Shown here: in pieces, positions 2,430 to 49,819 of the stretch
Layout: each line of letters opens with the position of its first letter
Position numbering within the stretch: position 1 is the first letter of the stretch
Source: a virus
Reading direction: 5' to 3' (one strand)
Length of the DNA stretch: 64,000 bases
IMG/VR virus record: IMGVR_UViG_3300025679_000001
Coordinates: 1-64,000 of that record
Program-made: the position numbers and the translations under genes
Notes under the pieces: model-generated
What the model was told of the DNA's origin: nothing
Database searches by the model: none
Seen by the model: the letters and a program-made list of their open reading frames with translations, nothing else

Positions 2430-3287
2430 CTAGTTTCCGTTAGTCGACGCCGCCGACGGTGTCGAGGCGGTGCCGATAGTCTGTGTGAAGTCTTCCCTAG
2501 TGAGAGCCTCGACCTCCTTGAGAGTGACTGTGAAGTTAACGATCACCGGCTCGTCAGTCCCCTTGAAGAAAGCTTTAGTTCCCTCGGAGTTCCTCTCGGC
2601 GACTGCTGAGGTCACCTGGGCCCTGTAGATCGTGTGGAGGAACGGGGTGTCCTCGGCGAAGAAGCGCACGTAGACCTCGTCCGGAAAGTTGAGGAGAAAC
2701 GGAGACTTCTTAGTCGGGTGCATGTGGTCCCGGAAGTAGTTGATGATGGACGATATGGTAGCCGACTCGCCGGCGTCCTTGGCGTGCAGTTTCCACTCGA
2801 AGTGGTGCTCCCTGAGCGCTACTCCCTTGAAGACTGACGTGATGTGAGGGTTTATCACGGTCCCCTGCGTAACGTCGATGATCGAGGACAGGTCGGACGA
2901 GAAGAAGTTAGCCGTCCTGCGCGCCAGGGCCTGAGAGAAGCCTATTCCTGCGTTCTTCAAGCTCTCGCCGTCGAGCCCGCCGCCGGAGATGTAGTCGTTG
3001 ATCACCTTGTCGGCGGTGTTGAGCGCTCCCCCGAACACGCCGAGCTCCTGGTCGCCGTACATGATGTTGTAGTACTCAGTCAAGTTAGCCGGCAGGGGGA
3101 GGACGATGTCGGCCTGGTTGATCTTGGTCGACGGGAGCTTCGGGTTGTTCCTGCTGTACTGTACGAAGGTGAAGATCGTGTAGTAGCGCCCGATCTCTGA
3201 CGGGTAGCGAAGGGACGCGCCGGTGCCGTTCATCGCCCCACGGGAAGCGTCGATAGTCGTCGTCGGGTTGTCCGTTGTCGTCGCCAT
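2430..3287 (-). CDS. baseplate / tail-tube junction protein (gp48/gp54-like)
   Basis: 285-aa ORF. LRYPSEIGRYYTIFTFVQYSR...IVLPLPANLTEYYNIMYGDQELG is reminiscent of the T4 gp48/gp54 family. Baseplate gene neighbourhood. Confidence 0.45.
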   Translation of the reverse strand: MATTTDNPTTTIDASRGAMNGTGASLRYPSEIGRYYTIFTFVQYSRNNPKLPSTKINQADIVLPLPANLTEYYNIMYGDQELGVFGGALNTADKVINDYISGGGLDGESLKNAGIGFSQALARRTANFFSSDLSSIIDVTQGTVINPHITSVFKGVALREHHFEWKLHAKDAGESATISSIINYFRDHMHPTKKSPFLLNFPDEVYVRFFAEDTPFLHTIYRAQVTSAVAERNSEGTKAFFKGTDEPVIVNFTVTLKEVEALTREDFTQTIGTASTPSAASTNGN

Positions 3288-14625: not shown

Positions 14626-14853
14626 CTATGCAAACTTTAGTTTGTTAGGAGAAGGGCGGACGAGCTTTAGCACCTCGGCCTCCTCCTGAATCTTAACCTT
14701 GAGGACTGAGCTCTGCTTGACGAAAGAGGCCACCGTCTCCATCTCGACGTTGGCCTCGGCTTGGTAGAGTTGAACCGCTTCCATGTAGGTGCAGCTCTTC
14801 TGCAGGACTATGGACTCGATGATGAAGTGAAAGTCTTTAGCGTCTATGATCAA
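14626..14853 (-). CDS. gp33: late-promoter transcription accessory protein gp33-like
   Basis: 75-aa ORF with a TTG start behind AAAGGA. HFIIESIVLQKSCTYMEAVQLYQAEANVEMETVASFVKQSSVLKVKIQEEAEVLKLVRPS aligns with T4 gp33 (GFIIEKMVEEFGMSYLEATTAFLEENSIPETQFAKFIPSGIIEKIQSEAIDENLLRPS). Confidence 0.7.
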   Translation of the reverse strand: MIIDAKDFHFIIESIVLQKSCTYMEAVQLYQAEANVEMETVASFVKQSSVLKVKIQEEAEVLKLVRPSPNKLKFA

Positions 14854-14869
14854 GCGCAGTCCTTTTGTT

Positions 14870-15253
14870 GAATTAGTGTCCGGCCTTCTGTTGCAAGGTC
14901 GCCGGACTAACCCCGAGAACTTAGGCCGCGAGGGCCGCGTTGCTCATGTCAACGTTGTCGTTGGCAATTATGGTTTTGATCAATTACGGAATCACCCGAC
15001 TAGTCTCCGAAACCTCTCTCTGCGCCAGTCGATCCTGTTTCGGGCCCATCAGAGATACACCGAGCTTTCGGGCAATTAACCCCTAAAGTTTCCACCAACC
15101 TCTTTCGCCCTCCCGTGCACAGGTGGAACGACCCAGTCAGCCTATCGGTAAGACCGATCCAAGCGTTTGCTCGGTCGGGTGTATCTTTGGTGGACCCGCC
15201 GAGGTACTGCCCCTCGGGTCCTGTACGCGATCGTTGTAACATCAACGACCAGT
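14870..15253 (-). ncRNA. large structured non-coding RNA / 5' leader of the gp33-gp59-gp32 operon (class unknown)
   Basis: About 385 nt between the promoter at 15260..15288 and the gp33 RBS. 13-bp long-range helix 15169..15186/15053..15065. Helix 15037..15043/15007..15013, with its loop (15027..15035) pairing to 14988..15001 (pseudoknot). Several local hairpins. Confidence 0.5.
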
Positions 15254-15259
15254 AATCCG

Positions 15260-15288
15260 TATTTATTACAGCGTGACTAGGCTGTCAA
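15260..15288 (-). promoter_or_regulatory. promoter TTGACA-N17-TAAATA (also contains the late-like AATAAATA)
   Basis: TTGACA (15288..15283) overlaps the TGA of the upstream gene. 17-nt spacer, TAAATA. The same stretch reads AATAAATA. Confidence 0.5.
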
Positions 15289-15821
15289 CCGTCGGTGCTC
15301 TTTTTTTCAGGCTCCGGCGCAACTTCTTTCTTCTGTTTCTTCACCGGCGGGGCTTCGTTGGTGACTCTGCTCGCCTCGATCTTAGCGAGGAAGGCGGCAG
15401 CTTCGTTGACCTTCGCGAGGATGGCCCTGGCTTCTTTCTCGTTGAGGAGCGTCCCGTCAGCGAACGCTGAGACCAGGCGTGTGTTGACCTCCTTCTCGTC
15501 GTAGAGGCCGATGATGTTCTTGTACTCGATCCTGATCCTGTCGCCGTTCAGCATCCCGTGCTCGTCAGTGAAGACGAGGTCGTTGGCGATGATGCAGGTC
15601 ATCGACCCGTCCGCGTCCTTCTCTTTGACGATGACCCACGGGCGCTCGGTCTTGTGCCTGGTCGTAGTGATCCCGATCTTGACGTAGTCACCCTCTACCA
15701 CTTTTTTGCGGTCCTCGAGTGAAGGCTGAGACCACGTCTCGGGATGGTCCTTAGCCATCTGGTCGCCGTCGATGAGCCCGTAAGCGTTAGTGAGTCCTCT
15801 TGAGTTTACTTTACTGACCAT
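15285..15821 (-). CDS. hypothetical protein
   Basis: 178-aa ORF with a Lys/Glu/Pro-rich C-terminal tail. No motif recognised. Confidence 0.5.
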   Translation of the reverse strand: MVSKVNSRGLTNAYGLIDGDQMAKDHPETWSQPSLEDRKKVVEGDYVKIGITTTRHKTERPWVIVKEKDADGSMTCIIANDLVFTDEHGMLNGDRIRIEYKNIIGLYDEKEVNTRLVSAFADGTLLNEKEARAILAKVNEAAAFLAKIEASRVTNEAPPVKKQKKEVAPEPEKKSTDG

Positions 15822-48670: not shown

Positions 48671-48749
48671 TGGTCCGCCGCCTGGGATTCGAACCCAGAC
48701 TAACTGCCGTTTTGAGTGGCGAGGCCTCTGCCGGTTGGGCTAGCGGCGG
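48671..48749 (-). tRNA. atypical tRNA-like gene (anticodon CAA if the loop is read canonically)
   Basis: Minus strand has a 7-bp acceptor CCGCCGC/GCGGCGG, the T arm CTGGG-TTCGAAT-CCCAG, A73 and an encoded CCA. The D stem has 3 bp. The anticodon stem is imperfect, giving either a 9-nt loop ACTCAAAAC or a 7-nt loop closed by A.C. The variable loop is short. Confidence 0.5.
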
Positions 48750-49742: not shown

Positions 49743-49819
49743 TGGCGTCCTAGAAGGGACTCGAACCCATGACCTCAGGTTTAGGAAACCTGCGCTCTAT
49801 CCAGCTGAGCTACTAAGAC
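49743..49819 (-). tRNA. tRNA-Arg (anticodon CCT)
   Basis: Minus strand: GTCTTAG-TA-GCTC-AGCTGGATA-GAGC-G-CAGGT-TTCCTAA-ACCTG-AGGTC-ATGGG-TTCGAGT-CCCTT-CTAGGAC-GCCA. This is a canonical cloverleaf with an encoded CCA. Confidence 0.85.

Follow-up and report, generated by a model that had tools for sequence, protein, structure and literature searches.

Two-piece tmRNAs have already been documented in phages. In the T4-like phage Melnitz and in pelagimyophages, such a tmRNA gene immediately precedes that of the gp33 co-activator and follows an early promoter (Buchholz et al. 2022, PMC9004378); the Melnitz tmRNA is of the alpha type and holds a glutamine riboswitch in its 3′ domain (PMC9004378). 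Permuted tmRNAs were reported in 17 of 47 related contigs, most relatives having either a tmRNA or a riboswitch and rarely both, and the accompanying survey counted 53 two-piece tmRNAs among 18,146 phage genomes and, based on ARAGORN, tmRNAs in 2.3% of phage genomes (PMC9004378). For Melnitz, it was also described that the tmRNA may be released by processing from the 5′ part of a longer transcript extending into gp33; the benefit of a tmRNA to the phage is a hypothesis in that paper as well (PMC9004378). Additionally, it is documented that tRNA-processing enzymes cleave permuted tmRNA transcripts, and a 2025 tmRNA database holds 79 phage sequences (PMC11915505).

In this work, we analysed the window, namely the whole stretch of 64,000 nucleotides at positions 1 to 64,000 of the IMG/VR virus record IMGVR_UViG_3300025679_000001, with a G+C content of 55%. 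On its minus strand, between a 178-aa gene and gp33, lies an element that very probably is a phage-borne ssrA gene encoding a circularly permuted, two-piece tmRNA of the alphaproteobacterial type.

Family assignment of the stretch upstream of gp33

No supported protein was found in the stretch from the TGA stop codon of the upstream gene (15287..15285) to the TTG start codon of gp33 (14853). Behind gp33 follows gp59 (helicase loader; PHROG match, E = 3e-37), and gp32 (single-strand DNA-binding protein; PHROG match, E = 3e-91) also belongs to the cluster. The initial annotation had described a structured, independently promoted minus-strand non-coding RNA in front of gp33-gp59-gp32, which the Rfam matches and the comparative promoter evidence bear out, and had found no RNA family to assign it to, a statement that no longer holds, as two Rfam tmRNA models passed at curated thresholds. 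In the Rfam scan, which took in the whole window at the curated gathering thresholds, alpha_tmRNA (RF01849) matched 14877..15292 with 101.5 bits (threshold 50; E = 1.4e-26) over model positions 1-355, that is, the full model, and tmRNA_permuted (RF04321) matched 14921..15250 with 94.9 bits (threshold 47) over model positions 1-213, both matches overlapping exactly on this stretch. A permissive scan of 14700..15400 (E <= 5) gave nothing credible beyond tmRNA and no riboswitch or other cis-regulatory family, and the Glutamine riboswitch (RF01739) had no match in this interval even at E <= 5.

An 81-aa frame at 15000..15245 was also considered as a protein-coding gene and was rejected, since it had no PHROG or other family match and overlaps the tRNA-like domain and the intervening sequence (IVS); the IVS lengths of relatives (4, 76, 81, 97 and 140 nt) would keep no frame intact. 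In annotation, the locus should be labelled ssrA (two-piece tmRNA) and not as an RNA of unknown kind or as spurious 77- and 81-aa open reading frames.

At default settings ARAGORN missed the gene, likely because of the long IVS and an additional T-stem base pair, and it reported the gene only at -ps70, with the 5′ tRNA domain misplaced. It reported a tmRNA in 54 of 101 related metagenomic loci, which were excerpts, some of them ended by contig ends, and owing to such misses ARAGORN-based counts of phage tmRNAs, for example the 2.3% cited above (PMC9004378), may be underestimates. The long IVS also affected our custom covariance model (R1), with which relatives scored 50-88 bits and the window 22 bits with wrong ends; Rfam was used for the tmRNA-negative loci instead.

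Anatomy of the two pieces and base pairing in relatives

The gene is ordered as promoter, acceptor piece (the 3′ half of the tRNA-like domain with an encoded CCA), IVS and coding piece (Table 1), and, PK1 aside, it shows all the sequence and base-pairing features expected of a two-piece tmRNA. Its T-stem of six base pairs exceeds the consensus by one, and appears in the Rfam alignment as two inserted bases.

Table 1. Features of the tmRNA locus and its neighbours, in the direction of transcription (window coordinates).
Feature	Position	Strand	Basis or remark
Upstream gene, 178 aa, unknown function	15285..15821	minus	stop codon TGA 15287..15285
-35-like hexamer TTGACA	15283..15288	minus	overlaps stop codon of 178-aa gene
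-10 hexamer TAAATA within ATAAATA	15260..15266; hexamer 15265..15260	minus	17-nt spacer from -35
Acceptor piece, ~66 nt	~15253..15188	minus	Rfam alignment, pair counts; 5′ end putative
Terminal helix, 5′ strand ACUGGUC	15253..15247	minus	pairs with 15005..14999
Small hairpin GUUG/CAAC	15246..15233	minus	
P2a, 5′ strand	15227..15221	minus	
T-arm CCGAGG/CCUCGG, loop GGCAGUA, 6 bp	15217..15199	minus	Rfam alignment
Acceptor stem, 3′ strand CGGGUCC	15198..15192	minus	directly 3′ of T-arm
Discriminator A and encoded CCA	15191 and 15190..15188	minus	
IVS, 140 nt	15048..15187	minus	Rfam alignment: insertion between CCA and 5′ acceptor strand
IVS base helix, 9-bp core	15186..15178 with 15061..15053	minus	
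IVS base helix, extension through bulge	15173..15169/15065..15061	minus	
ACCA opposite UGAU	15191..15188 versus 15051..15048	minus	
Coding piece, ~171 nt	15047..~14877	minus	
Acceptor stem, 5′ strand GGGCCCG	15047..15041	minus	G15045:U15194 = G3:U70 alanine identity pair
D-loop-like conserved segment AAACAGGAUCGA	15040..15029	minus	
P2a, 3′ strand	15028..15023	minus	
Terminal helix, 3′ strand GACUAGU	15005..14999	minus	
PK1 candidate	14998..14977	minus	S1 14998..14995/14990..14987; S2 14994..14991/14980..14977
Tag reading frame	14921..14965	minus	ARAGORN at lowered threshold, translation, Rfam consensus alignment
3′ pseudoknot candidate, GGGGU with ACCUU	14914..14910 with 14899..14895	minus	
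3′ hairpin, conserved loop ACCUUGCAACAGAA	14907..14901 with 14884..14878	minus	
gp33 ribosome-binding site AAAGGA	14865..14860	minus	
gp33 start codon TTG	14853	minus	24 nt past tmRNA 3′ hairpin
gp33 (late-transcription co-activator), 75 aa	14626..14853	minus	PHROG 254 'late promoter transcriptional regulator', E = 1.4e-12

A search pattern made of the 3′ end of the IVS and the acceptor strand found 16 viral contigs; a variant of the pattern found 18 alphaproteobacterial genome contigs, and a narrower variant 101 metagenome contigs. In an alignment of 16 sequences, from which the IVS interiors were removed, the tmRNA model was 81.6% paired, compared with 65% in shuffles and 41-49% with slid partners, and its covariation score was 0.437 versus 0.151, a value that none of 500 shuffles reached. 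The helices joining the two pieces covary in these relatives: the acceptor stem was 100% paired with compensatory changes at 3 of 7 pairs, P2a 83% paired (4 of 6) and the terminal helix 85.7% paired (6 of 7). The T-arm was likewise 100% paired, with compensatory changes at 4 of 6 pairs. The GUCCGGC/GCCGGAC hairpin at 14907..14878, which had been noticed initially, proved to be the 3′-terminal stem of the coding piece, being 90% paired with compensatory changes at all 7 pairs in the same 16 sequences. In a wider set, the G3:U70 pair was invariant (32/32 sequences).

Two further elements of the initial annotation, a 7-bp helix CCGAAAC/GUUUCGG and a pseudoknot pairing GGAUCGACU with AGUCG..GAU.CC, were not upheld: jointly they were 41.3% paired, 377 of 500 shuffles did as well or better, and no covariation was seen. 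These elements were rejected, being complementary in the window sequence only and clashing with the acceptor stem, the D-loop-like segment and the terminal helix (15253..15247/15005..14999). The PK1 candidate was drawn by analogy with two relatives (L060 and L019) and was 40-55% paired in a poorly aligned region, and a brute-force pseudoknot search for PK1 did not beat shuffles.

These pairing data also bear on the idea that the locus is a non-functional captured fragment of a host gene, or the remnant of an ssrA integration site. It is common for phages and genomic islands to insert themselves into tmRNA genes and to take parts of these along (PMC9004378, PMC11915505); however, the gene is of full length with the whole Rfam model (1-355) matched, it has a conserved promoter of its own, its base pairs are kept through compensatory changes and its position is conserved in many lytic T4-like contigs, so that we give a dead remnant a negligible probability.

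The tag reading frame consists of the codons GCC AAC GAC AAC GUU GAC AUG AGC AAC GCG GCC CUC GCG GCC UAA, and would thus begin at a GCC alanine resume codon and yield ANDNVDMSNAALAA before the UAA stop; the Rfam consensus aligned with it is AUAAUUGCaAACGAcAAc. With its ANDN start and ALAA finish the tag is like those of other alpha-type tmRNAs, while its middle part (VDMSNA) is unlike the bacterial tags recovered here. This difference could be taken as a sign of a decoy or modifier RNA, one that would compete with the host tmRNA for SmpB and ribosomes and thereby block trans-translation or add a different tag. Some relatives do carry an extra copy that consists of the tRNA-like domain only, and a tag-less tRNA-like-domain RNA of the mycobacteriophage DS6A inhibits the endogenous tmRNA in E. 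coli, as cited in a passage of PMC11915505. However, in the copy of the window the resume codon, the reading frame, the ALAA ending and the stop codon are all intact, and all helices needed for function are kept, which makes a decoy role quite improbable.

Intervening sequence, promoter and genomic setting

The IVS is predicted to be excised from the precursor. The 13-bp long-range helix that stood out in the initial annotation is the base stem of this IVS, and it is real, its 9-bp core being 96.5% paired with compensatory changes at 4 of 9 pairs in the 16 sequences. Most of the sequences were found with a pattern that included the 3′ strand of the base helix, and the evidence for this helix therefore lies in its 5′ strand, in the unconstrained positions and in the sequences found otherwise (the window, L019, L020, L035, L053 and L054). 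The acceptor stem, the three ACCA/UGAU pairs and the base helix were jointly 98.4% paired in 32 sequences. The base helix lies 4 bases from the acceptor stem, in a register that is fixed in 37 sequences and also held in 70 of 74 unique metagenomic IVSs, so that the precursor would form one long, near-continuous helix of acceptor stem, ACCA/UGAU and base stem. Folding of the acceptor stem together with the IVS gave -70.1 kcal/mol (z = -4.24; 0/200 shuffles as good), and the minimum-energy fold contains the base helix.

The IVS is about 1.6 times as long as the median of its relatives (86 nt). For its interior, no relative was found by the gp59-based IMG/VR search, by searching viral and metagenome contigs with two IVS/acceptor patterns or by blastn, nor was there an Rfam match at E <= 5, so that its internal hairpins are thermodynamic predictions. 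It is conceivable, though unlikely, that such a long and strongly folded IVS would be released as a stable RNA with a function of its own, or would keep the CCA end bound in a helix and so control the maturation of the tmRNA.

Across the relatives, in some gene pairs the IVS is 99-100% identical while the mature tmRNA parts are 78-89% identical, and in other pairs the relation is reversed, including one pair in which one gene has an IVS and the other has none; small reading frames occur in the IVSs of some relatives. Judged from these comparisons, the IVS appears to behave in these phage tmRNA genes as an exchangeable cassette that is bounded by a conserved helix and evolves in a mosaic-like manner, decoupled from the mature parts. 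This mosaicism is the only route to something new that came up here, and it concerns the tmRNA family and not this window.

The promoter proposed initially, TTGACA-N17-TAAATA, is present as described and recurs in relatives, while a strict sigma-70 consensus scan did not call it, because its -10 hexamer ends in A. Of 100 unique regions upstream of related tmRNAs from viruses and metagenomes, 49 contained the motif TTGAC[AG]-N16-18-TAnnn[AT] (shuffle mean 0.56, maximum 4), and from the end of the -10 element to the CCA end the motif-bearing relatives measured 66-77 nt, with 72 nt in the window. The ATAAATA heptamer, which we take to resemble the core of T4-type late promoters, occurred in 8 copies in the window against 1.13 expected, a number reached in none of 100 shuffles, and 7 of the 8 copies shortly precede a gene start, correctly oriented to it, or, in the case of the present copy, the tmRNA. 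The tmRNA is thus probably transcribed from a sigma-70-type promoter that also contains a late-type ATAAATA, and early and late expression are not separable computationally.

A scan for terminator-like sites found none between the tmRNA and gp33, and transcription may continue into gp33-gp59-gp32. This arrangement, with the element 24 nt upstream of gp33, would also suit an element acting in cis on gp33-gp59-gp32, as a leader, riboswitch or autoregulatory operator, that responds to a ligand or phage protein and thereby sets the expression of these genes, and glutamine riboswitches do occur in the same neighbourhood in some relatives (L034 and L048) and in the 3′ domain of the Melnitz tmRNA (PMC9004378). 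Against such a leader, the tmRNA parts account for the whole element, no riboswitch or cis-regulatory family matched at E <= 5, the helices specific to the leader idea lack covariation, and in relatives the tmRNA often lies 0.4-4 kb from gp33 or, in the Rhodobacter siphophages, has no gp33 nearby; we therefore hold a regulatory leader to be highly improbable. A weak form of it survives because no terminator-like site separates the two genes, namely that the tmRNA may be cut out of the 5′ part of a transcript running on into gp33.

Based on tmRNA biology, we propose that a precursor of about 380 nt would start near 15253, in which the IVS base helix and the ACCA/UGAU pairing would clamp the two acceptor strands together. 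The tRNA-processing enzymes of the host could then take out the IVS, with RNase P cutting 5′ of G15047 and 3′ trimming proceeding to the CCA at 15188, and the two pieces would remain base-paired after its removal. Alanyl-tRNA synthetase would charge the RNA via G3:U70, and host SmpB would bring it to ribosomes stalled on broken mRNAs, where translation would resume on GCC and the ...ALAA tag would direct the product to host proteases. A gene for SmpB was not detected in the 64-kb window with an approximate sequence of E. coli SmpB as the query, so that the RNA is assumed to rely on the host protein. The phage could, as a hypothesis, benefit from free ribosomes and recycled amino acids during host mRNA degradation and host shut-off.

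The setting upstream of gp33 recurs in relatives. The gp59-based IMG/VR search yielded 52 T4-like loci, 8 of which have a permuted tmRNA upstream of gp59, and in 44 of 130 unique tmRNA loci gp33, gp59 or gp32 lies downstream on the same strand, with none in another arrangement. In six loci the gp33 start is 184-198 nt from the 5′ end of the coding piece, compared with 194 nt in the window, and in many relatives other genes occupy the 0.4-4 kb between the tmRNA and gp33. Where T4-like relatives lack a tmRNA, the equivalent position is often taken by a tRNA gene or a glutamine riboswitch. The locus is a further instance of the repeatedly seen association of tmRNA with the gp33-gp59-gp32 cluster and raises no new question.

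Among 50,697 phage records, nucleotide matches were found only to the Rhodobacter capsulatus siphophages RcSimone-Hastad and RcRudolph. A megablast of 25 kb of the window against 50,697 phage records gave no match, no record held an exact match to the gp32 protein, and the best tblastn match of gp32 in the GenBank phage collection was 46% identical. By these sequence searches, the phage is without a close sequenced relative in the collections searched and appears to be a separate lineage. The alpha-type tmRNA is a weak pointer to an alphaproteobacterial host or ancestry of this otherwise unplaced T4-like phage, and Melnitz has an alpha-type tmRNA yet a gammaproteobacterial host. Against all collected loci, nhmmer reached no more than 45-53 bits, with these best scores spread over unrelated alphaproteobacterial MAGs and the Rhodobacter phages, so that no host can be named below class level.

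Comparison with known tmRNA systems

Compared with the alphaproteobacterial tmRNAs of RF01849 and RF04321, the gene in the window has the same order of acceptor piece, IVS and coding piece, and in common with them are the G3:U70 acceptor stem, the encoded CCA, the D-loop-like GGAUCGAC, the ANDN...ALAA form of the tag and the 3′-hairpin loop ACCUUGCAACAGAA; the register of the IVS base helix is the same as in the 18 alphaproteobacterial genome contigs. Unlike those genes, it is carried by a T4-like phage, and its 140-nt IVS compares with about 27 nt between CCA and GGGG in the Rfam consensus, as read from the alignment, and with 30-266 nt in the bacterial contigs sampled. Its 6-bp T-stem also differs from the alphaproteobacterial consensus, and its P2 region is reduced to a short acceptor-piece hairpin and the 7-bp terminal helix, the longer bacterial P2b helix being absent.

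The tmRNAs of RcSimone-Hastad and RcRudolph, which are permuted and unannotated in GenBank, have the same architecture as that of the window, with the same base helix around an IVS of 97-98 nt and a tag (ANDNVRMDAQALAA) that has the ANDNV.M...ALAA pattern in common with the window's tag. The mature parts are 75-80% identical to those of the window, whereas the IVS is unrelated, and the two siphophages lack the gp33/gp59/gp32 context.

Melnitz is likened here by its published description. The window's 55% G+C and its gp32, at most 46% identical to that of any GenBank phage searched, place it in a lineage other than that of Melnitz, and unlike in Melnitz no glutamine riboswitch lies in or beside its tmRNA. 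The peculiarities of the locus are local ones, namely the long IVS, the 6-bp T-stem, the miss by ARAGORN at default settings and the lack of a close sequenced relative. A phage two-piece tmRNA upstream of gp33 is already published, and the window is a further example of it: as in Melnitz, gp33 of a T4-like myophage is directly preceded by an alpha-type permuted tmRNA, which follows an early-type promoter and apparently shares one transcription unit with gp33.

Intervening sequences and mature parts of the permuted tmRNAs

The intervening sequence (IVS), which lies between the acceptor piece and the coding piece, and the mature tmRNA parts were found to be decoupled in their evolution among the related loci L062/L066/L070, L058/L069, L019/L020 and L035/L046. 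Some pairs among these loci share an IVS of 99-100% identity with mature parts only 78-89% identical, while others combine mature parts of 92-100% identity with an IVS that is 62% identical or cut to 4 nt. The pattern suggests that IVSs are exchanged like cassettes, although it may also reflect chimeras of metagenome assembly. Additionally, small ATG-started putative reading frames occur within some IVSs (Table), such as the predicted MQKIKDIIKIAIGLEVIVILAFL... of Rhodobiaceae and Hyphomicrobiales MAGs and MKLKKIEEFIILE... of a phage contig.

Detection of phage tmRNAs and their presence in cultured phages

Complete permuted tmRNAs with the tag ANDNVRMDAQALAA occur in RcSimone-Hastad and RcRudolph, two cultured Rhodobacter capsulatus siphophages. 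The tmRNA is unannotated in both GenBank records, and in RcRudolph the "hypothetical protein" CDS RCRUDOLPH_61 overlaps part of it. Of 101 metagenome excerpts (L089 onward), which were cut around loci carrying the conserved signature of a tRNA-like domain plus IVS, 54 gave a tmRNA call when ARAGORN was run with its default settings; this is a rough figure only, as some excerpts end early at contig ends. This yield suggests that phage permuted tmRNAs are undercounted in ARAGORN-based surveys.

Signals and small RNA genes in the window and its relatives

The heptamer ATAAATA occurs eight times in the window, vs 1.1 expected, with seven copies on the minus strand; six copies precede a gene start by 4-90 nt, in one case that of gp32, and another lies upstream of the tmRNA. 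This heptamer probably serves as the core of the phage's late promoters. The window also carries two phage tRNA genes. In T4-like relatives that lack the tmRNA, a tRNA gene is found about 650-850 nt upstream of gp33. Glutamine riboswitches are present in two further such relatives, about 3.5 kb upstream of gp59 and so less clearly at the same site. Upstream of gp33-gp59-gp32 there appears to be a hot spot for genes of small structured RNAs.

Coordinates of the features described (L-numbers, collected related loci)
Feature	Position	Strand	Remark
IVS with small ATG frame	L072, L086, L087		IVS 184 nt
IVS with small ATG frame	L077		IVS 266 nt
IVS with small ATG frame	L022, first copy		IVS 143 nt
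Complete permuted tmRNA	L053 2312-2725		RcSimone-Hastad, MW677525
Complete permuted tmRNA	L054 2311-2725		RcRudolph, OP009285
ATAAATA	window 3315, 6803, 13856, 15260, 26783, 32214, 41732, 42295		
tRNA-Leu(CAA)	window 48671-48749	-	not reported by Rfam at gathering threshold
tRNA-Arg(CCU)	window 49743-49819	-	also reported by Rfam at gathering threshold
tRNA gene upstream of gp33	L001 3085-3157; also L004, L014, L015, L016, L026, L030		
Glutamine riboswitch	L034 403-459; L048 504-554		
Tag-less tRNA-like domain	L022 ~2730-2970		same contig as L057
Tag-less tRNA-like domain	L023 2390-2546		identical in L025, L061, L064

Tag-less copies of the tRNA-like domain

In L022 and L023, a second, tag-less tRNA-like domain lies directly upstream of a complete permuted tmRNA. 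It is built from an acceptor piece and a 5′ acceptor strand carrying a D-loop-like segment, separated by an IVS of 143 or 99 nt. The L023 copy scores 72 bits with R1, our own covariance model; the L022 copy gives weak and fragmentary matches (19.8 and 15.5 bits) and its assignment rests on reading of the sequence. Both resemble the "permuted, no CDS" class and the DS6A mini-tmRNA, which are mentioned in PMC11915505.
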